Assembly (NCBI GenBank): GCA_050873305.1
Contig: JBNMIN010000001.1
Span: forward strand, 1-45,724
Direction of reading: 5' to 3'
DNA: 45,724 nucleotides
Source: Oscillospiraceae bacterium
GTDB lineage: Bacteria; Bacillota; Clostridia; Oscillospirales; Acutalibacteraceae
A program made the translations under genes and the position numbers. Shown piece by piece: positions 21,703 through 31,249 of the stretch (positions are counted from its first letter, which is position 1; each line of letters begins with the position of its first letter). A model generated the notes under the pieces. That model saw only the letters and a list, made by a program, of their open reading frames with translations. It ran no database searches and had not been told where the DNA came from.

Positions 21703-23532
21703 ATGAATAATCAGAAAACTGTCAAAAGTGCAAACAGCGAAAAGAGCGCAGTGCTCTATATCGTGACCTGTGCGTTGGTCGTCATTCAGCCGCTGCTCGA
21801 TATACTTTCGTCTATTGTTATCAATCTCGGCAAGGCGAATTATATCAGCGTCTCGGGTGCCGTCAGGGCGGTTATCATCGCCGCCGTGACCGTGTTCACC
21901 CTCGGCTTCTACAAGGGCAAATACAGCACCCTGTTCAAAGTCTATAACGGTATCGCCGCCGCATATATCGCGCTGATGTGCCTTATGAGCGCGACCCGCG
22001 GCGACCATGTCGCGTTCCTCTATATGCTCGGACTCATGGCGGATACTTTCTTCTTTGCGTTCATGTTCCTGCTCATATTCGAGACCGCGCAGACCGTCGG
22101 ACGCAGAGTCCACCCCGCCGTTATAGCGGCGACAGCGCTCATCTACGCGCTGACACTTGTTATAAATTATCTTTCAAAGAAGGGCACGTTCCATTATTCG
22201 ACCTCGTTCGCCGTGGCGCTCGCTCTTCTTATCCCGACCGCTCTCGTTTTCTTTGTCTCCCATCTCGGCAGAAAGAAAGCGGAAAGCACAAAGCCCGCCG
22301 ATGCGGCGCTCTCGTGGATAGTCCCGGCGGCAGGTATTATCTTGCTTCTCGTCGGCGCAGTGCTTTCGAATTCAAAGCCCGTGCTCTTCGTCTCCGTCAT
22401 ATTCTCGGCGATTCTATTTATGTGGACGTTTTCATCCTGGCGAGACGGCAGAAAAGAGAACCGTCCGCCTATGATGCGCGCGTTCTTTTCGAGCGCACTT
22501 TTCTGCGTGCTTATTCTCGCGCTTCTGCCGATATCTCCCGTGAAGAGCAGCTTCGACGGCACGTTCAGCTTTAAGGGTATGTTCTATACATATAACGGTC
22601 AGCAGTCGCCGACCGTCAACCCGAACGGTGACGACCCTATATTCGGCGATGAGGACGAGGACGACGACAGCGATTATGTCCCGAACCTTGACTCCGGCTA
22701 TGTGCCCGGCAGCGACAAAAAAGACAACGACACAACAAAAGGCGATAAGACCACCGAAAAAAGCTCGGCTTCTACGGCAGGCGAATCCACAAAAGAACCC
22801 GCAGGCGACAGCACCGATGACACCTCCGAAGAAACAACGGAGATAAGCACCGAGACCACAAGATGGTGGCAGACGAAGCCCACGATACCGGACAGATCCG
22901 ATATCGAGAGCTTCCTTACCGATATCAGCAACCGTGTCACCCGCCCGGAGGAGAGCACAATGCCGCCCGTTGAGACCGATCCGGAACCCACCGCTCCGCC
23001 CAATACGGAGGAACCCGGCACGGTAGCTCAGGAGAACAACGCCCCCGCCGCCGCGATAGGCTTCGGCTCGCTTAGAAGCCCCGCGCTTCCGAATGCCGGT
23101 GCTATAAATATCGACAGAACGGTCTATTATTCAAAGATGTTCGGCGAGGGCGATATCCAGACAAAGCTCTTCGGCTTGAAATTCGCCGCGCTGTTCGATC
23201 AGACGGACTCGATAAAGACCGCGACAAAAGTCCATTCCGATCCCATAACCGTCGCGCTCAATTACGGCATACTCGGCTTTATTGTCTACATTCTGCCCGC
23301 GGCGTTCATTTTCCTGAAGCTGCTCACGTTTATCCTCGGAAATCTTTCAAAAGTTTTCCGTTCGGCAGGCTGCGCAGTCTATATGTTCACTTCCGTCGTT
23401 ATTCTGATTCTCTCCGCGCTCGACGGCGATATTCTGACATTTTCTGCAGTCGGCGGCGCCGCGTCGGTCATTTTGGCGAATGCTCTCTCCGTCAGCGAGG
23501 ATGCGCGCGACCGCTCGGCGGAAAATAAATAA
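21703..23532 (+). CDS. Polytopic membrane protein, O-antigen ligase/polymerase-like, with a large acidic Ser/Thr/Pro-rich loop
   Basis: About 9 N-terminal and 3 C-terminal hydrophobic segments. KLFG...HSDPITVALNYGILGFIVY resembles the Wzy_C/O-antigen ligase H-x-D...YGIxG motif. Confidence 0.6.
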   Translation: MNNQKTVKSANSEKSAVLYIVTCALVVIQPLLDILSSIVINLGKANYISVSGAVRAVIIAAVTVFTLGFYKGKYSTLFKVYNGIAAAYIALMCLMSATRGDHVAFLYMLGLMADTFFFAFMFLLIFETAQTVGRRVHPAVIAATALIYALTLVINYLSKKGTFHYSTSFAVALALLIPTALVFFVSHLGRKKAESTKPADAALSWIVPAAGIILLLVGAVLSNSKPVLFVSVIFSAILFMWTFSSWRDGRKENRPPMMRAFFSSALFCVLILALLPISPVKSSFDGTFSFKGMFYTYNGQQSPTVNPNGDDPIFGDEDEDDDSDYVPNLDSGYVPGSDKKDNDTTKGDKTTEKSSASTAGESTKEPAGDSTDDTSEETTEISTETTRWWQTKPTIPDRSDIESFLTDISNRVTRPEESTMPPVETDPEPTAPPNTEEPGTVAQENNAPAAAIGFGSLRSPALPNAGAINIDRTVYYSKMFGEGDIQTKLFGLKFAALFDQTDSIKTATKVHSDPITVALNYGILGFIVYILPAAFIFLKLLTFILGNLSKVFRSAGCAVYMFTSVVILILSALDGDILTFSAVGGAASVILANALSVSEDARDRSAENK

Positions 23533-23559
23533 CACGCTGATATATCAAAAATAAACATG

Positions 23560-23585
23560 GCGTCCCGCTTGCGGGACGCTTTTTT
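23560..23585 (+). terminator. Rho-independent terminator
   Basis: GCGTCCCGC-tt-GCGGGACGC followed by TTTTTT. Confidence 0.85.
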
Positions 23586-23694
23586 GATTTCTGTTGCATT
23601 TCAGAATTTTTATCTCTGCTCTCTGACGGATTTCCGAAAAATTTTCATAAAAACTCCGCTTTTCCACAAAAAATATTGAATCTAAATGGTACTA

Positions 23695-23724
23695 TTTACA
23701 TTTATATTTAATAGTGTGTATAAT
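23695..23724 (+). promoter_or_regulatory. sigma-A promoter for the dat-...-alr operon
   Basis: TTTACA (23695-23700)-18 bp-TATAAT (23719-23724); overlapped by ACTATT...AATAGT inverted repeat (23691-23715). Confidence 0.6.
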
Positions 23725-23841
23725 GAATATGCTGAAAATCGCGGGAAAACAGGCTTCGATTTTGCGCCTTTGCCCGATGCGGATTTTTGAATAATTGTTG
23801 ATTATATCCTGCATTTTTGCAGGGAAAGGAATGGTATATAA

Positions 23842-24684
23842 ATGGAAAATCTGGGGTATTACAACGGCAAATTCGGTCCTCTTGAAGAAATGATGGTTCC
23901 CATGAACGACAGAGTGTGCTATTTCGGCGACGGCGTCTATGACGCGACTTACAGCCGCAACGGCGTCATCTTCGCTCTTGACGAGCACATCGACCGTTTC
24001 TTCAACAGTGCGGGACTGCTCCGCATTGAGCTTCCCTGCACAAAGGACGAGATGAAAGACATTCTCAACGATATGGTCAGCAAGGTCGATTCCGGCAACA
24101 ACTTTGTCTATTGGCAGGCGACCCGCGGCACCGGTATCCGCAACCATGCGTTCCCCAAAGAGGGCAAGGCGAACATCTGGGTCACTATAAAGCCCGCCGA
24201 GGTTCAGGATCTTTCCCGCCGCATAAAGCTCATAACCCTCGAAGATACGAGATTCCTTCACTGCAATATAAAAACTCTTAATCTTATCCCGAGCGTCATG
24301 GCGGCTCAGAAGACCGCCGAGGCCGGCTGCGACGAGAGCGTTTTCCATCGCGGCGACAGAGTCACAGAGTGCGCTCACAGCAATGTACATATCATAAAGG
24401 ACGGTGTGTTCAAGACCCATCCGACCGATCATTATATCCTGCCCGGCATCGCCCGCGCGCATCTTATCAGAGCGTGCAAGGCGAACAATATCCCGGTTGA
24501 CGAGACTCCGTTCACCGTCGCCGAGCTTATGGATGCCGATGAAGTTATCGTCTCTTCGTCCGGTTCGTTCTGCCTTGTCGCAAACGAGATAGACGGCAAG
24601 CCCGTCGGCGGCAAAGCACCCGAGCTTATCGACATCCTCCAGAAATACCTCGTCAAAGAGTTTATCGACGCTACAACTGTCTGA
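23842..24684 (+). CDS. dat: D-amino-acid aminotransferase (PLP fold type IV)
   Basis: DR..YFGDGVY, RNHAFP (DAAT RxH signature), CNIKTLNL (catalytic Lys), VTECAHSN, ILPGIAR. Confidence 0.85.
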   Translation: MENLGYYNGKFGPLEEMMVPMNDRVCYFGDGVYDATYSRNGVIFALDEHIDRFFNSAGLLRIELPCTKDEMKDILNDMVSKVDSGNNFVYWQATRGTGIRNHAFPKEGKANIWVTIKPAEVQDLSRRIKLITLEDTRFLHCNIKTLNLIPSVMAAQKTAEAGCDESVFHRGDRVTECAHSNVHIIKDGVFKTHPTDHYILPGIARAHLIRACKANNIPVDETPFTVAELMDADEVIVSSSGSFCLVANEIDGKPVGGKAPELIDILQKYLVKEFIDATTV

Positions 24685-24698
24685 GGGAGGGGAGCGGT

Positions 24699-25766
24699 AT
24701 GACGCAAAAAGAGCTCACTCTTCTCAATTTAGGCGACAGCCTCGATAACATCTCCAACATCGACCCCAGAGGATACGGCGTGTGTCATATCCTCTATCCC
24801 GCTTCGCGCGAATACACGGGCGGTCCCCTCTGCATGAACGCAGCGGGGAAGCTCTGCGACACTCTGAAGCAGGATAACCTCGTCTATATAATGACAGGCT
24901 TTGTCCTGCCTCCGTTCGGCAGTGCCGAGACGGACGGCGTTATCAGCTCCGTCCTGCTCGCGCGTTCGCTCGTTATCGCGTTCGGCGCAAAGCCTGTTAT
25001 CGTCTGCCAGGAGGAGAATGTCCCCGCCGTCAAAGCTATGGCGGCAGTTGTCGGACTTCATCTCTATGAGTCGATAGACGAGCTGAAAAAATATCCGATA
25101 TCCATGGCCGTCGTACCCTTTACAAAAGATAAGTCAAAGGCAGAGAGCTGCGCCGATGAGATAATCTCCCACGGCAAGCCCGCAGCAGTTATCAGCATCG
25201 AAGCGCCCGGCGAAAATAAAATCGGCAAGTATCATAACGCCACCGGACTTGATGTGACCGACCTTGAGGCGAAGATGGATATCCTCTTCGATAAGCTTCG
25301 CGCCATGGGCGTGCTCAATATCGCGATTGGCGACCTCGGCAACGAGATAGGCATGGGCACTATCGCGCCCCATCTGCATAAGCATATTCCCTATGCCAAC
25401 GAGGGCGAGTGCCGCTGCGGATGCGGCGGCGGAATAGCCGTTCGGAGCATCACCGATAATATAATCACCGCGACCGTCTCCGATTGGGGCTGCTACGCGA
25501 TGATAGCGGCGATAGCTTATCTCAAAAAAGATATTGATATCATGCACACCGCCGAACTCGAGGGCGAGGCGATAACCGCCGCCGCGCGCAACGGCATGAT
25601 CGATATGTACGGCTGGTGTATCCCGGCTATCGACGGCTTCGGCAAGAGCATGAACATGACGATAGTCAACCTCATGCGCGAGTGCGTCAGCTACGCGCTG
25701 AGACTTGAGGACACCTGCAAGACCTGGTTCGAAAAGGTCATTGACAAGGGCTTTTTCGGCGAATAA
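24699..25766 (+). CDS. DUF4392 / D-glutamate cyclase C-terminal-like domain protein
   Basis: MTGF, ETDG, IEAPG, IGDLGNEIGMG, VSDWGCYA, IDG motifs match the family pattern (ETDGP, IERxG, GDGGNExGMG, VSNWG) with substitutions. Confidence 0.8.
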   Translation: MTQKELTLLNLGDSLDNISNIDPRGYGVCHILYPASREYTGGPLCMNAAGKLCDTLKQDNLVYIMTGFVLPPFGSAETDGVISSVLLARSLVIAFGAKPVIVCQEENVPAVKAMAAVVGLHLYESIDELKKYPISMAVVPFTKDKSKAESCADEIISHGKPAAVISIEAPGENKIGKYHNATGLDVTDLEAKMDILFDKLRAMGVLNIAIGDLGNEIGMGTIAPHLHKHIPYANEGECRCGCGGGIAVRSITDNIITATVSDWGCYAMIAAIAYLKKDIDIMHTAELEGEAITAAARNGMIDMYGWCIPAIDGFGKSMNMTIVNLMRECVSYALRLEDTCKTWFEKVIDKGFFGE

Positions 25767-25786
25767 CCAAAAAGGGGTAAAAAGCT

Positions 25787-26518
25787 ATGAACGAAACGCT
25801 GTTTCTTCCGGCCGGAGATTCGGCGGTCAATGTTGATTTCGGCAGGACTATAGACCCCGAGATAAACAAAAAAATACGCGGCCTGTCTGACTCGCTGTCC
25901 CGTAAGCCGATACGCGGGGTGACGGAATGTATTCCTACGTTCCGCTCCCTGCTCGTCTGCTACGATCCCTTGCAGACGGGCTGTGAGGATTTGATAAAGA
26001 AGCTCAAAAAGCGGATAAAATCGCTCGACCAGGTGTCGGGCGGGGAGAAGAGAGTGTTCAATATCCCCGTCTGCTACGGCGGCGAGTTCGGCGAGGATAT
26101 AGCCTTTGTCGCGTCCCATGCCGGGCTCACCGAGCAGGAGGTCATAGACATACACACGGGCAGAGATTATCTTATCTTCATGCTCGGATTCCTGCCCGGA
26201 TTTGCTTATCTCGGCGATATGGACAAACGCCTGCACACTCCGCGCCTGCCAAATCCGCGAACGAGTATTCCAGCGGGCTCTGTCGGCATAGGCGGCGAGC
26301 AGACCGGAATATATCCGCTCGCGTCTCCGGGCGGATGGCAGCTTATCGGCAGAACGCCCGTTAAGCCCTATGACCCGAACCGCGCGGAGCCGATACTCTA
26401 TCGCGCAGGCGATTATATCCGCTTCTTCGCTGTCGATGAACAGGAGTATCGCCGCATCGAAGAACTCGTCAGCCGCAACGAATACGAGTGCAGAATAACG
26501 ACCGGGGAGGGAAAATGA
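25787..26518 (+). CDS. pxpB: 5-oxoprolinase subunit B (KipI-like)
   Basis: GDSAV, PTFRSLLV.YDP, IPVCYGGEFGED, GFLPGFAYLG, PAGSVGIGG.QTGIYP..SPGGWQLIGRT. Confidence 0.93.
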   Translation: MNETLFLPAGDSAVNVDFGRTIDPEINKKIRGLSDSLSRKPIRGVTECIPTFRSLLVCYDPLQTGCEDLIKKLKKRIKSLDQVSGGEKRVFNIPVCYGGEFGEDIAFVASHAGLTEQEVIDIHTGRDYLIFMLGFLPGFAYLGDMDKRLHTPRLPNPRTSIPAGSVGIGGEQTGIYPLASPGGWQLIGRTPVKPYDPNRAEPILYRAGDYIRFFAVDEQEYRRIEELVSRNEYECRITTGEGK

Positions 26519-26519
26519 T

Positions 26520-27506
26520 ATGAGTATGCATATAATCTCTCCCGGTATGCTCACCACCGTTCAGGATCTCGGGCGCCGCGGCTATATGGCATCGGGATTC
26601 CAGCAGGGCGGAGCAATGGATCAGTTTGCCGCCAGAGCCGCCAATATCCTGCTCGATAACAGCGAGTCGGACGGCGTGCTCGAAATGACCCTGCTCGGCG
26701 TCAAAGCTTATTTTGATGAGGACAATGTGATTGCGATAACCGGAGCCGAGTTTGCTCCCACCGTGACCGATTCCGAGACAGGCGAAGTCACCGAGCTTCC
26801 GATGAACCGCGCCGTGCGCATCAAAAAGGGCGATGTGCTCGATTGCGGGAGCGCCAGGAGCGGACTCCGCGGTTATCTCGCCGTGGCGGGCGGCTTTGAT
26901 ATCGCGCTCGTTATGGGCAGTATGTCAACTAATCTTAAATGCAAAGTCGGCGGCTTCGAGGGCAGAAAGCTGAAATCCGGCGATGTCCTGCCGCTTCGTT
27001 ATCCGCAGAGTGATCTTTACGGCATGACTTCTCGAGTTTTCGAGCCCGAGAAGCAAAAAGACGGCACAGTCACCGTCCATGTCATACCCGGGCCGCAGGA
27101 TGATTATTTCTCCGACAAGGGCAAAAATATCTTTTATTCCGAAACTTATTCCGTCACCGGCGACTCCGACAGAATGGGCATAAAGCTCGACGGTACTCCG
27201 GTCGAGAGCGTTGACGGCGTCGATATAATTTCGGACGGCATCGTCGCGGGCTCGGTTCAGATCCCGTCCTCCGGCAAGCCGATAATCATGATGGCGGACA
27301 GACAGACTACAGGCGGCTATGCAAAGATAGCCACGGTCATCACCGCTGATTTGCCCCTGCTCGCCCAGCTTCGTCCGGGTGGCAGCCTGCGCTTTGAAAA
27401 GGTCGATCTCCAATATGCCGTCAAGCGTATAAAACAAGAAAATAAGCTTCTCAAAAAACTACAGTATAAGATTCTCAGAGCGGATACCTCTATATCCGGC
27501 TCCTGA
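26520..27506 (+). CDS. pxpC: 5-oxoprolinase subunit C (KipA-like)
   Basis: PGMLTTVQDLGR.GY, GAMD, GLRGYLAVAGG, SDRMG, GSVQIP..G.PII..ADRQTTGGYAKI. Confidence 0.93.
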   Translation: MSMHIISPGMLTTVQDLGRRGYMASGFQQGGAMDQFAARAANILLDNSESDGVLEMTLLGVKAYFDEDNVIAITGAEFAPTVTDSETGEVTELPMNRAVRIKKGDVLDCGSARSGLRGYLAVAGGFDIALVMGSMSTNLKCKVGGFEGRKLKSGDVLPLRYPQSDLYGMTSRVFEPEKQKDGTVTVHVIPGPQDDYFSDKGKNIFYSETYSVTGDSDRMGIKLDGTPVESVDGVDIISDGIVAGSVQIPSSGKPIIMMADRQTTGGYAKIATVITADLPLLAQLRPGGSLRFEKVDLQYAVKRIKQENKLLKKLQYKILRADTSISGS

Positions 27507-27521
27507 TTGGAGGCAGATAAA

Positions 27522-28307
27522 ATGGACTATTCTTCGATGAGTCCGCACGATGTAAGACAGCTTATAAGAGAGGGCAAAATAACCTGCAACACCTCGGGCA
27601 TGTGTGCGGGCTATGCCCAGGCGAACCTCTGCGTTCTGCCAAAGGACCTCGCTTATGACTTCCTGCTTTTTGCCCAGCGCAACCCGCGCCCGTGCCCGAT
27701 ACTCGAAGTCAGCGATGTCGGCTCGCGCTTTTTGAAAAAAATAGCCTCCGGCGCGGATATCGCAAACGATATCCCGAAATACAGGGTCTATGAAAACGGC
27801 GTTATGACCGGCGAATATACGAGCGTCGAGCATCTTTGGCGCGATGATTTTGTGAGCTTTCTTATCGGATGCAGCTTCTCCTTCGAGTCGGAACTGATAG
27901 CCGCAAACGTGCCGATAAGGCATATTGAAGAGGGCAGGAATGTTCCGATGTATCTTACAAATATCGAGTGCGAGCCCGCCGGAATTTTCCACGGAAAAAT
28001 GGTCGTCAGCATGCGCCCGCTGCCCTATGACAAGATAGTCACTGCCGTCGCGGCGACCGCCGCCATGCCGAAAGTCCACGGCGCTCCGATTCATATCGGC
28101 GACCCGTCCGTTATCGGTATCAAAGATATTTCAAAGCCCGATTTCGGCGATGCGGTTACTATAAATCCCGGCGAAGTGCCTGTATTCTGGCCGTGCGGCG
28201 TCACTCCGCAGTCGGCTCTGATGAGCACGAAGCCGCCTATAGCGATAACTCATTCGCCCGGGCATATGCTCATAACCGATGTCAAAAATGTCGAGCTTAA
28301 ATATTGA
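27522..28307 (+). CDS. ycsI: DUF1445 / YcsI putative hydro-lyase (D-glutamate cyclase N-terminal domain family)
   Basis: [73 protein letters not shown]. Confidence 0.88.
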
Positions 28308-28321
28308 CAGGGGGCACAGAT

Positions 28322-29089
28322 ATGCATAAAATAGATCTTAACTGCGATCTCGGCGAGAGCTTCGGCAACTATAAGCTGGGGCTCGACGATGAGGTCATAA
28401 AATATATTTCGTCCGCCAATATAGCCTGCGGTTTCCATGCGTCCGATCCGCTCGTGATGCAGAAGACCGTCGCCCTCGCGCGCGATAACGGCGTTGCGGT
28501 CGGTGCACATCCGGGCTTTCCCGATCTTGTCGGCTTCGGCAGAAGAAATATGAACGTTTCGCCCGCCGAGGCAAAGGCGTTCGTCCAGTACCAGATAGGC
28601 GCGCTCTCCGCGTTCTGCAAGGCTGCCGGCTGCCGCCTTGCTCATGTCAAGCCACACGGCGCACTCTATAATATGGCAGGCAAGGACGAGACTCTTGCCG
28701 CTGCCATTTGCGAGGCCGTCTATGAAATCGACCCCGAGCTCATTCTCCTCTGCCTCTCGGGCAGCAAGATGATGAGCGAGGCGAAGAAAATCGGACTCAG
28801 AGCCGCGAGCGAGGTCTTTGCCGACAGAGCCTATGAGGATGACGGCTCTCTTGTCGCAAGAGGTAAGCCGGGCGCAGTCATAACCGATGAAGATGAGGCG
28901 GTCAGCCGCGTTATCGGTATGGTCAAAAACGGCACGGTCGAGTCGATAAACGGCAAAATAATCGAATTGAAGCCCGATTCGATATGCCTTCACGGCGACG
29001 GAGTCAAAGCGGTCGAATTCGCAAAGCGTATAAAAGCTGAACTCAACGCAAATGGTATTGAGACCGCCCCGCTTGCCCAAATAATCTGA
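28322..29089 (+). CDS. pxpA: 5-oxoprolinase subunit A (LamB/YcsF)
   Basis: [61 protein letters not shown]. Confidence 0.95.
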
Positions 29090-29106
29090 CAAAGGAAGCG
29101 ATAACG

Positions 29107-30273
29107 ATGCAGTATCATCGTATATATGCAAGGATAGATATAGACGCGATTCTCCACAATCTCGGCGAGTGCAAACGCCGCATACCCGAGGGGACGAAAG
29201 TCCTCGCGGTCATAAAAGCGGACGGCTACGGCCACGGCGCGGTCGAGCTTGCGCATCAGCTTGAGAGCGAGGTCGATTATTTCGGCGTCGCCGTCATAGA
29301 AGAGGCAGTCGAGCTTCGCCGCGCGGGCATAAAAAAGCCGATTCTCATTCTCGGCTATACTTCGCCCTCGCAGGACGATCTGCTGATAAACTATGATATA
29401 ACGCAGAATATCTATACTTATGATATGGCAAAGCGCCTGTCGGATAGGGCGGTCGCCCTCGGCAAGAAAGTGAAGTTCCATATCGGACTCGATACGGGTA
29501 TGTCGCGCGTCGGATTTCAGGACAATGACGAGAGCGTCGAGCAGATAAAGAAGATAGTCAAGCTCCCGAATCTCGTTCTCGAGGGCATTTTCAGCCACTA
29601 CGCCCGCGCCGATGAGCTTGTAAAAACAACGGCACTTCTCCAGTCGGAGCGCTTCGATTTGTTTATAGATAAGCTCGAAAAGGCTGGTATAAATATACCG
29701 ATAAAGCATCTGAGCAACTCGGCGGCAGTCGAAGAGCTCGAAAAGCACTATGATATGGTGCGCTTCGGAATCTCGCTCTACGGACTCTATCCCTCGGAAG
29801 AGGTCGATAAATCGAGCGTTGATCTCATTCCAGCAATGGAGCTTCGCACAAAGATAGTCAATCTCAAAACCGTCCCTGCCGGCTGCGGAGTCAGCTATGG
29901 GCACACTTTTGTTACTCACAGGGAGACGCGCATCGCGACTATCCCCGTGGGCTATGCCGACGGTTATCCGCGCGCCCTCTCTTCAAAGGGCAGGGTGATA
30001 GTCAACGGTCAGTTCGCGCCGATAATCGGCAGAGTGTGCATGGATCAGTTCATGATAGATGTGACCGATATCGAGGGCGAGCTGAATATCGAGGACGAGG
30101 TTATTCTCATGGGCAGCGACAACGGCTGCACGATAAGCGCAGAGGAGATAGGCGATATGTCGGCGAGCTTCAACTATGAGTTCGTCTGCGGCGTTGCCCG
30201 CCGTGTCCCGCGAATTTATTTCAAAGACGGCAAACCCTATAAAGAAGTATCTTATATTATGGACAGGGAATAA
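29107..30273 (+). CDS. alr: Alanine racemase
   Basis: AVIKADGYGHG (PLP Lys), DTGMSRVG, GIFSHY, SNSAA, VSYG (catalytic Tyr), GYADGY, GRVCMDQ. Confidence 0.93.
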   Translation: MQYHRIYARIDIDAILHNLGECKRRIPEGTKVLAVIKADGYGHGAVELAHQLESEVDYFGVAVIEEAVELRRAGIKKPILILGYTSPSQDDLLINYDITQNIYTYDMAKRLSDRAVALGKKVKFHIGLDTGMSRVGFQDNDESVEQIKKIVKLPNLVLEGIFSHYARADELVKTTALLQSERFDLFIDKLEKAGINIPIKHLSNSAAVEELEKHYDMVRFGISLYGLYPSEEVDKSSVDLIPAMELRTKIVNLKTVPAGCGVSYGHTFVTHRETRIATIPVGYADGYPRALSSKGRVIVNGQFAPIIGRVCMDQFMIDVTDIEGELNIEDEVILMGSDNGCTISAEEIGDMSASFNYEFVCGVARRVPRIYFKDGKPYKEVSYIMDRE

Positions 30274-30277
30274 ACTG

Positions 30278-30329
30278 TTGACAAACATTCCCCCAAGCGG
30301 TTATAATTAAAACGATAAAAATTTATCGT
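30278..30329 (+). promoter_or_regulatory. Consensus sigma-A promoter with downstream palindromic operator
   Basis: TTGACA (30278-30283)-18 bp-TATAAT (30302-30307); ACGATAAA-aa-TTTATCGT perfect inverted repeat at 30312-30329. Confidence 0.75.
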
Positions 30330-30346
30330 AAGCAAGGAGTGTAACA

Positions 30347-31249
30347 ATGTCAAAAGTAGAAAAAACGGCGAGCTTCAAGTCTTATGCCGCGATGTGGATC
30401 GCCATCATTGCCGCCTATGCGGTGTGGATGATAGCGTTTATGCGCAAGATAGTGCTCGTCAACTACGCAACGGTAGAGGAACGTACCGTCGACGGCATCA
30501 CCCATGCCAACATCAGCGGTATGATGGGTCACGAGTGGCTCTATCCCATCTGGGTCGCAGTCTCCTGCATATGCCTTGCAATGTTCATCGTCTACATAAG
30601 AGTCCTGCTCTATGGTAAGGAGCCCGGCAAGGCGCTGAAAATATTCTGCCTCTTCGGCGTTATCTTCGGCTGCGTCTATGTCACATGGTACGGCTTCTTC
30701 GGCGATCAGCCTTTCATCGAAAAGGTGAAGTTCATTACCGCGAGCATGATAGGTCTCGACTTCCCGTGGCATTTCAGAGGCTGGGGCGTTATCGCTTCGG
30801 CGACCGTGTTCAGCAACACGCTCTATGCCTATCGCAAGTTCGGCTATCACAGCCGCGTCGGCGTTATCCTCGGCTCGATTGGCAGCGCCGCAATTTATGT
30901 CACTATCAACTGCCCGTCGATGGGTGAGGAGATGCATCTTGATTCCGCGCGCTGCATGGCGCATTGGACGGGCGCGCTCCTGTTCGCGTTCTGCTGCGCC
31001 GCTCCCATGGTTCTCCTGCTTATAAATAAAGCGAGAGAGCTCAAGGGACGCTTCCTGGTTGGTCTTATAGTTTTCTGCGCGATACTTCTCACAATGCTCG
31101 TTCTCCTGCTGACTGTCGGCAAGAGCGCGATTATTGAGAATATCCCGATGCAGGCGGCATATGTCCTGCTCTTCTTGCTCAACTTCACCAACATCTTCCC
31201 CGTGAAGAAAGCCGAAAAAGCTCCGGCAAAAGAGGCGGCGACCGTCTGA
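30347..31249 (+). CDS. Uncharacterised multi-pass membrane protein
   Basis: About 8 hydrophobic segments, AAGGAG RBS, own promoter; no family recognised. Confidence 0.75.
   Translation: MSKVEKTASFKSYAAMWIAIIAAYAVWMIAFMRKIVLVNYATVEERTVDGITHANISGMMGHEWLYPIWVAVSCICLAMFIVYIRVLLYGKEPGKALKIFCLFGVIFGCVYVTWYGFFGDQPFIEKVKFITASMIGLDFPWHFRGWGVIASATVFSNTLYAYRKFGYHSRVGVILGSIGSAAIYVTINCPSMGEEMHLDSARCMAHWTGALLFAFCCAAPMVLLLINKARELKGRFLVGLIVFCAILLTMLVLLLTVGKSAIIENIPMQAAYVLLFLLNFTNIFPVKKAEKAPAKEAATV

Follow-up and report, generated by a model that had tools for sequence, protein, structure and literature searches.

A conserved seven-gene operon of an Oscillospiraceae bacterium and its possible role in turning D-glutamate into L-glutamate

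What is the use of an operon that joins the enzymes for making D-glutamate to those for opening 5-oxoproline? The question is raised by positions 23842–30273 of a 45,724-nucleotide stretch of DNA (hereafter the window; contig JBNMIN010000001.1) from an Oscillospiraceae bacterium (assembly GCA_050873305.1, hereafter G000), in which seven open reading frames (ORFs), all on the + strand, follow one another in the order dat, DUF4392, pxpB, pxpC, ycsI (DUF1445), pxpA and alr. Our analysis suggests that the operon may be a one-way, adenosine triphosphate (ATP)-driven route from D-glutamate to L-glutamate in bacteria without glutamate racemase (MurI), a reading to which we give a probability of about 0.45. 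The operon is a real, conserved combination of known enzyme families that is apparently undescribed, and one of its activities is probably new. A literature search, in which most subscription journals were not covered, returned no paper that describes the operon, a D-glutamate cyclase pathway in bacteria or a racemase acting on oxoproline. In the accessible portions of three sources, split GLUCM homologues from 6 gut genomes are tabulated without discussion (PMC12547972) and D-glutamate cyclase is merely named (PMC6131576 and PMC8260693).

A seven-gene operon and its proposed route

The genes of the operon are as follows.

23842..24684, + strand: dat, canonical-type D-amino-acid transaminase (PF01063)
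24699..25766, + strand: DUF4392 / GLUCM-like_C, predicted D-glutamate cyclase of a divergent clade (PF14336 over cut-off)
25787..26518, + strand: pxpB, 5-oxoprolinase subunit B (PF02682/TIGR00370, 228.9 against a cut-off of 145.55)
26520..27506, + strand: pxpC, 5-oxoprolinase subunit C (PF02626/TIGR00724, 306.6 against 230.2)
27522..28307, + strand: ycsI / DUF1445 (UPF0317), candidate 5-oxoproline racemase (PF07286/NF003969)
28322..29089, + strand: pxpA, 5-oxoprolinase subunit A (PF03746/NF003814, 384.5 against 226)
29107..30273, + strand: alr, alanine racemase (TIGR00492, 377.4 against 168)

With ATG starts read from the sequence, the intergenic gaps from dat to alr are 14, 20, 1, 15, 14 and 17 bp, in agreement with the preliminary description of this DNA, which had seven genes on one strand with gaps of 1–20 bp; its DUF1445 and DUF4392 assignments were likewise borne out by profile searches, in which PF07286 and PF14336 scored over cut-off, as did the other families listed above. 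The assembly has one copy of each gene, not counting a distant IlvE-like gene on contig C97, on account of which an initial idea that Dat is the genome's sole fold-IV transaminase was wrong.

In the proposed route, Alr, assigned by profile and motif, would interconvert L-alanine and D-alanine, and Dat would pass the amino group of D-alanine or other D-amino acids to 2-oxoglutarate, giving D-glutamate; both activities are known for the respective families. DUF4392 alone would cyclise D-glutamate to 5-oxo-D-proline at a two-metal site, YcsI would racemise the lactam by means of two cysteines, which is the weakest step, and PxpABC would convert 5-oxo-L-proline into L-glutamate at the expense of ATP, as known for the family and predicted here. 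The net reaction would be D-amino acid + 2-oxoglutarate + ATP to 2-oxo acid + L-glutamate. Cyclisation of D-glutamate to the lactam is downhill, and hydantoin racemase/hydantoinase-type cascades, in which a cyclic amide is racemised and one enantiomer is then opened, follow the same logic.

The best-scoring family of Dat is TIGR01121, at 239.9 bits and under the equivalog cut-off of 277.45. The protein contains F28, Y33, A35, Y90-W-Q92, R100-N-H102 and K144, invariant in 23/23 locus copies, with Y33, R100 and H102 forming the carboxylate trap and K144 serving as the catalytic lysine. The canonical D-amino-acid transaminase motifs are F26, Y31, [VA]33, xYxQ and RxH together with the catalytic lysine (accessible text of PMC10003956); where the canonical enzyme has [KRPT] at position 35, the window protein has Tyr37 (Val in one of the 23 copies). 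Alr carries K37 within a KADGYGHG motif, VanT models score under cut-off, and it is the sole alr found in the genome. The operon shares canonical transaminase motifs and Alr with the known Alr plus D-amino-acid transaminase route to D-glutamate (PMC8788868 and PMC10003956, in part). It differs from that route in that the two genes are here coupled to lactam-handling genes, including in genomes that probably have no need of free D-glutamate. An E. coli AlaA query for alanine transaminase gave only 25–26% matches in G000; the search did not extend to other alanine transaminases or to alanine dehydrogenase.

The Pxp subunits are 50% (PxpA), 43% (PxpB) and 36% (PxpC) identical to those of E. coli, and PxpC scores under the cut-off of the equivalog NF045499 (250 against 500). 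PxpA, PxpB and PxpC are common to the window operon and to the 5-oxoprolinase operons pxpA-ycsG(pxpT)-...-pxpB-pxpC of B. subtilis, C. glutamicum and C. difficile, in which PxpABC acts on the L-lactam (accessible text of PMC13274462), and YcsI is present also in B. subtilis and C. glutamicum, which served as control rows. By comparison with the B. subtilis-type operons, the window operon lacks a transporter and an adjacent regulator, has DUF4392, dat and alr in addition, and its subunits group apart. No transporter gene, including YcsG/PxpT, was found within 23842–30273. A second operon type, found in six genomes, combines pxp with an NRAMP-type transporter and ycsI and lacks DUF4392, dat and alr (transporters in 5/5 scanned). 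Because the window operon has no transporter whereas five DUF4392-less pxp–ycsI operons carry an NRAMP-type one, its substrate is likely made inside the cell.

DUF4392 and YcsI as two enzymes

Fold and metal site both place the window DUF4392 protein beside Thermococcus TON_0340 (PDB 4FC5/5GL4; PMC5132392). Its structural model (predicted local distance difference test, pLDDT, 95) superposes on 4FC5 with a Z score of 33.9 and a root-mean-square deviation of 1.8 Å over 258 residues, and the six acidic di-metal ligands E77, D79, E168, D212, E216 and D312 correspond to E59, D61, E115, D157, E161 and D246 of TON_0340 (6/6 kept). In contrast to TON_0340, the window protein is about 85 residues longer and has a CxCGC insert (residues 238–242) as well as GDLGNE and SDWG motifs. 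The insert (window 25410–25424) is clade-specific, being absent from the Intestinibacter solo copies and from a short clade, and an extra metal site there is possible. An ESM Atlas search with DUF4392 returned its own family only. Among the matches listed (120 of 238 long homologues), DUF4392 is fused to DUF1445, PxpB, PxpC, MurD-like and NlpC/P60 domains, fusions that link the family with Pxp and wall D-glutamate; a DUF4392–racemase fusion mentioned for Thermovirga was not seen among them.

To our knowledge, mouse DGLUCY is the only characterised D-glutamate cyclase, and it is reportedly (Katane, 2018) a metal enzyme. The mammalian protein is also called C14orf159 (EC 4.2.1.48), and the mouse enzyme makes 5-oxo-D-proline and no L-glutamate, according to the accessible text of PMC5339696. 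Both of its domains, PF07286 and PF14336, are encoded in the window too, but as two separate, non-adjacent genes that lie 1.8 kb apart and are linked to Dat, Alr and Pxp. Across the window clade, 16 bacterial fusions and 18 non-mammal eukaryotes, 58 DUF1445 positions are conserved, 17 of which have been lost from the DUF1445 half of the mouse protein (P0241). The lost residues, which the bacterial protein retains, include Q33, N35, D83, Y87, G116, N140, H186, C225, G226 and H244, and they are absent from each of the 7 sequences in the mouse cluster and one related cluster. By comparison, the mouse DUF4392 half keeps the five alignable metal ligands, which it has in common with the window protein; the sixth is not alignable. 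Since the mouse DUF1445 half is degenerate while the DUF4392 metal site is kept, DUF4392 would be the cyclase; and because, in addition, the families occur without each other in 6/19 genomes each, DUF4392 and YcsI appear to be distinct enzymes. DUF4392 alone is thus likely to be the cyclase, and the split two-subunit D-glutamate cyclase of the preliminary description is probably incorrect in its details. The Pfam name D-Glu_cyclase may accordingly sit on the wrong domain. Residues 2–260 of P0241, the DUF1445 half, look catalytically dead in mouse, whereas fish, amphibians, reptiles and birds seem to have an intact version.

The lactam epimerisation had been left without an enzyme in the preliminary description, and YcsI is now a candidate for it from gene context and sequence. 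C117, C225, H186 and H244 are invariant in 32/32 locus copies, and the two cysteines recur in 16/16 bacterial fusions and 18/18 non-mammal eukaryote fusions. In the YcsI model (pLDDT 90), each cysteine lies just after a strand and before a helix. Two invariant cysteines are also the hallmark of two-cysteine racemases, but the YcsI fold is tandem ferredoxin-like; the top matches of the fold search are UPF0317 structures, followed by NrpR-like MJ0159 at Z 10. PxpA is present in all 19 YcsI-bearing genomes (in two pieces in one, at the same locus in 14) and DUF4392 in 13 of them; conversely, YcsI is missing from 6 of 19 DUF4392-bearing genomes. Both B. subtilis and C. glutamicum have PF07286 and lack PF14336. 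Because YcsI was never found without PxpA and would stand between a source of D-lactam and an enzyme that opens the L-lactam, it is most simply a lactam racemase. A more specific version of the proposed route holds that YcsI is a cofactor-free two-cysteine 5-oxoproline racemase on a new racemase fold, alive in bacteria, fish, amphibians and birds and dead in rodents, which with the DUF4392 cyclase and PxpABC would form an ATP-driven D-to-L pump replacing the catabolic role of glutamate racemase in MurD2/MurL gut Clostridia. We advance this version tentatively, as somewhat less probable than the route itself.

Gene content, wall D-glutamate and the rival explanations

Conservation was surveyed in 20 GTDB loci (8 of them near-copies, at least 91% identical), an even sample of 121 family genomes and 250 class genomes. 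Among the GTDB loci, 12 have the full order, one has six genes without alr, four are cut by a contig end and three, from Intestinibacter, have DUF4392 alone. The full operon was found in G000, G009, G081 and G082 of the family sample, while G016 has six of the genes before its contig ends, and the sole additional operon of the class sample, in G143, lacks alr. The clustering thus recurs in other genomes, and partner protein identities go down to 42–65% among the conserved operons; operon conservation is in excess of chance. PF14336 scores over cut-off in 10/121 family genomes, several of which depart from the full arrangement. G056 has a dat–DUF4392 pair with pxpA–ycsI and pxpC at other places, and G050 has an operon without its own DUF4392 and a distant-clade copy elsewhere in the genome; both retain the gene set despite dispersal. 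G013 and G051 have DUF4392–alr only, with no Dat, Pxp or canonical MurD found, and G094 has a distant solo copy. Solo DUF4392 genes often lie behind a DUF3870 gene of about 107 aa (L037, L040, L073, L074, L076 and L078; two Pfam-confirmed), and in G212 (L082:4314-10696) the DUF4392 gene is flanked by an AtuA-like gene and a TRAP/TAXI transporter, a different context. Sequencing runs that contain the stretch include gut metagenomes.

The wall pathway of the carriers bears on the direction of the route. G000 (97% complete) has no match to PF01177 or TIGR00067, hence no MurI, and none was found in the near-identical G121. In the family sample, MurI is over cut-off in 95 genomes, in pieces in 2 and lacking in 24, and a MurL-like gene occurs in 21/24 MurI-less and 0/97 MurI-positive genomes. 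The MurL matches to NF041275, a Xanthomonadales model, reach 118–282 bits (E 1e-34 to 1e-84) against a cut-off of 700. In G000 the MurL-like gene is split over two overlapping contig ends, the murL–murD2 pair lying on C19:3-839 (− strand) and C36:1-2119 (+ strand), and the gene is intact in G121 (L062). The MurL-adjacent MurD has Glu and Arg at the positions of E. coli D182 and K348 in 9/9 examined, including G000, and the equivalents E197 and R358 are reported to set the L-glutamate specificity of MurD2 (PMC8788868, accessible text). Elsewhere in its genome, G000 shares with the MurD2/MurL pathway of Xanthomonas and Micromonospora (same source) an adjacent murL–murD2 pair with these residues and the absence of MurI. 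It differs from that pathway in belonging to the Clostridia and in having both a gene that forms free D-glutamate, dat, and a second, canonical-type MurD with Asp and Lys (C71:9065-10405, L042). G121 also has this second MurD, and the MurD of G016 and G123 likewise has D and K. Wall D-glutamate of G000 would likely come from MurD2 and the MurL epimerase without free D-glutamate, and the canonical MurD could still use the Dat pool.

Several observations on these wall genes stand apart. The murL–murD2 pair occurs in Clostridia in 21/121 family genomes and 8 further class genomes, and the review names, in its accessible text, only Proteobacteria and Actinobacteria (PMC8788868). The canonical-type MurD of G000 (L042; also L057) lies outside the dcw cluster and, together with MurD2, gives the genome two parallel glutamate-adding ligases. 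The MurL match of G152 lies within a 1019-aa frame, a possible fusion; the MurD of L060 (G081), L083 (G125) and L084 (G082) carries Lys at 348 with Asn or Thr in place of D182 (E. coli numbering); and no MurI, MurL or Dat was found in G052 (93% complete).

Among the 12 Dat-bearing family genomes, DUF4392, YcsI and PxpA occur together in 6/6 that are MurI-less and 1/6 that are MurI-positive, and YcsI or PxpA was found in 0/18 genomes that lack MurI as well as Dat. Given this Dat/MurI pattern, the five middle genes would most simply do for Dat what MurI does elsewhere, namely remove D-glutamate. Furthermore, G009, G050 and G056 have Dat, DUF4392, YcsI and Pxp, and MurD2 is the only MurD found in them; because these three relatives would need no free D-glutamate, disposal in the D-to-L direction is favoured over supply. 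The D-to-L direction and MurI-independent setting put forward in the preliminary description are supported by the lack of MurI in G000, by the six MurI-less Dat genomes and by the three with only the L-glutamate-using MurD2/MurL route. The co-occurrence with dat and with murI absence, for which it proposed a survey, held in those six genomes and broke down in 3/10 operon lineages, which have MurI. Every wall route thus occurs alongside the operon, among them one that probably requires no free D-glutamate.

An early idea, that the operon mainly supplies D-glutamate in place of MurI, was weakened by the discovery of MurL/MurD2. It survives in the unlikely explanation that Alr and Dat make wall D-alanine and D-glutamate in place of MurI and that PxpABC, YcsI and DUF4392 clear spontaneous lactams, with no net D-to-L flux. 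This would fit the presence of the genome's only alanine racemase in the operon, the four carriers G016, G081, G123 and G125, which have the operon and a non-MurD2 MurD and in which neither MurI nor MurL was found, the canonical MurD (D182, K348) of G000 and G121, and the absence of alr from 2/3 MurI-positive operons. However, G009, G050 and G056 retain Dat and the set though only MurD2/MurL was found, G013 and G051 have kept DUF4392 next to alr but lack Dat, Pxp and a canonical MurD, and a reversible cyclase beside a D-glutamate pool would form the lactam rather than clear it. In relatives without MurI and MurL, Alr and Dat likely do also supply the wall, and the other five genes would act as overflow; this corresponds to the alternative of the preliminary description, a valve on Dat-made D-glutamate. 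The converse inversion, in which L-glutamate or L-pyroglutamate from the diet would undergo racemisation at the lactam stage, ring opening then yielding D-glutamate for the wall, could account for the lack of MurI in 9/10 DUF4392 carriers as against 15/111 other family genomes, but it would be pointless in MurD2-only carriers, Dat already gives D-glutamate, and PxpABC is known to act on the L-lactam (PMC13274462, in part); we give it hardly any weight.

Two further explanations concern the individual enzymes. One dispenses with the racemase and has the enantiomers salvaged separately: PxpABC would open the L-lactam, hydrolysis of 5-oxo-D-proline to D-glutamate would fall to DUF4392, with or without YcsI, or to a Pxp that tolerates the D form, and Dat and Alr would carry this on to 2-oxoglutarate and L-alanine. 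It needs only family-known reactions, assays of the mouse enzyme included the hydrolytic reaction (PMC5339696 supplement), the YcsI fold is unlike known racemases and the operon Pxp subunits form their own clade. We nevertheless hold it to be rather improbable, as the operon has no transporter for lactam import and the retention of YcsI with PxpA but without DUF4392 in 6/19 genomes and B. subtilis would be left unexplained. The other gives the DUF4392 clade a different substrate (D-isoglutamine, D-glutamine, a gamma-D-glutamyl wall peptide or a phosphorylated metabolite), so that 5-oxo-D-proline or nothing would be fed into the Pxp/YcsI arm. Up to three conserved arginines are lost clade-wise and Asp262 is gained near the metal site, TON_0340 has weak phosphatase activity, and the fusions listed include NlpC/P60 and MurD-like domains. 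By comparison, DUF4392 lies directly behind dat in nearly all intact operons, a pairing kept in G056; a mouse-like DUF4392 elsewhere in G050 replaces the lost operon copy; and TON_0340, by sequence alignment, also lacks the two arginines. This explanation appears to us quite improbable.

A number of points weigh against the one-way D-to-L route. The activities of all seven proteins are predicted, and Dat and Alr could dispose of D-glutamate without ATP. For DUF4392, the sole bacterial or archaeal member studied, TON_0340, is a weak Mn-dependent phosphatase, described as a probable phosphatase without an assigned substrate (PMC5132392, in part), and the operon clade is about 22–33% identical to DGLUCY-type domains. 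Five positions near-invariant in 21 other homologues including mouse are changed in the window protein (R to Y26, R to A169, R to T182, G to L213 and N to D262), with Y26, L213 and D262 present in 19/19 operon-clade sequences; because of these changes, the substrate of the clade may differ from D-glutamate. For YcsI, no known racemase appears among the top rows of the fold searches, which does not exclude the activity, and two cysteines with two histidines would suit a metal site no less than a racemase, so that YcsI may be a Cys/His metal hydrolase. MurI is present in 3/10 operon lineages (G082, G124 and G143) and in 7/9 class-level DUF4392 carriers, mostly solo genes, none of which (0/9) has MurL; MurI anticorrelation as a class-wide rule for solo DUF4392 was rejected on this count. 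G000 and G121 also carry canonical MurD, and a permanent D-glutamate drain would compete with wall synthesis in G016, G081, G123 and G125. In trees of PxpA, YcsI and PxpC, from which 9 near-copy or truncated loci were left out, the window-type proteins fall on one branch side (support 96/93, 90/92 and 95, the last in a quick tree), and these three operon genes may have a single origin. Because they form one tree group, the co-occurrence counts are not independent, and Fisher tests on them are descriptive only. Gene absences rest on draft genomes, and two MurI-positive solo dat genes sit on contigs under 2 kb.

Should the one-way route be correct, it would be the first bacterial pathway role for DUF4392 and DUF1445, two widespread families with solved structures and no function. 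The presence of ycsI in pxp operons would then have an explanation, and the cyclase activity of animal DGLUCY would have to be reassigned to its other half. In addition, gut anaerobes would gain a further way of clearing D-amino acids that requires neither an oxidase nor glutamate racemase, and the route predicts that non-mammalian vertebrates can turn 5-oxo-D-proline into the L form and that rodents cannot.

Predicted signals and neighbouring genes

The boundaries and predicted signals of the operon are as follows.

23559..23590, + strand: intrinsic-terminator-like hairpin at the 5' boundary (hairpin 23559-23580; 9 pairs, 7 GC, T tail)
23695..23724, + strand: predicted sigma-70-like operon promoter, TTTACA-18-TATAAT (11/12 match)
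28304..28332, + strand: internal promoter-like site (11/12), overlapping the ycsI stop and pxpA start
30278..30307, + strand: promoter-like site of the next gene at the 3' boundary (perfect consensus, 12/12)

The hairpin at 23559–23580 ends the upstream O-antigen-ligase-like gene and is kept in close relatives. A promoter-like site of at least 10/12 lies upstream of dat in 18/23 relatives, with a −35 element TTTACW in 17/23, as counted without a shuffle control. The single upstream promoter of the preliminary description is matched by the predicted site at 23695–23724, but a second site of equal score lies inside the operon. The internal site could drive alr alone; it scores at least 10/12 in 8/19 relatives, all of them close, is missing from distant operons and is partly forced by the stop codon and coding. 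The window has 16 promoter-like sites overall against 10.2 ± 3.3 in shuffles, a modest excess. A strong terminator was looked for 3' of alr and none was seen. Contigs of the sole public RNA run (X1) span all six operon junctions and also the alr/next-gene junction, and they cover the flanks at a depth similar to that of the operon, with a break at 23565–23830 that comes from a single study. Because that further junction is bridged and the flanks are at similar depth, a DNA origin of these contigs is possible.

CodY-like boxes upstream were rejected, as the best has 3 mismatches, 185 sites with at most 3 mismatches exist genome-wide and their conservation does not extend to distant operons. A small hairpin, CCTGCA-loop-TGCAGG, at window 23808–23823 abuts the dat ribosome-binding site and is kept in 6 close relatives, not in distant ones. 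In G009, a gene for an Lrp/AsnC regulator (L014:7849-8322) lies directly upstream of the operon. The gene directly upstream in the window (21703–23532) encodes an O-antigen-ligase-like membrane protein that carries a long, acidic insert rich in Thr and Pro, and is conserved in close relatives. Downstream, the perfect consensus promoter precedes a gene (30347–31249) for a 300-aa membrane protein without a Pfam match, and two other sequencing runs carry an insertion at about 30328–30333.

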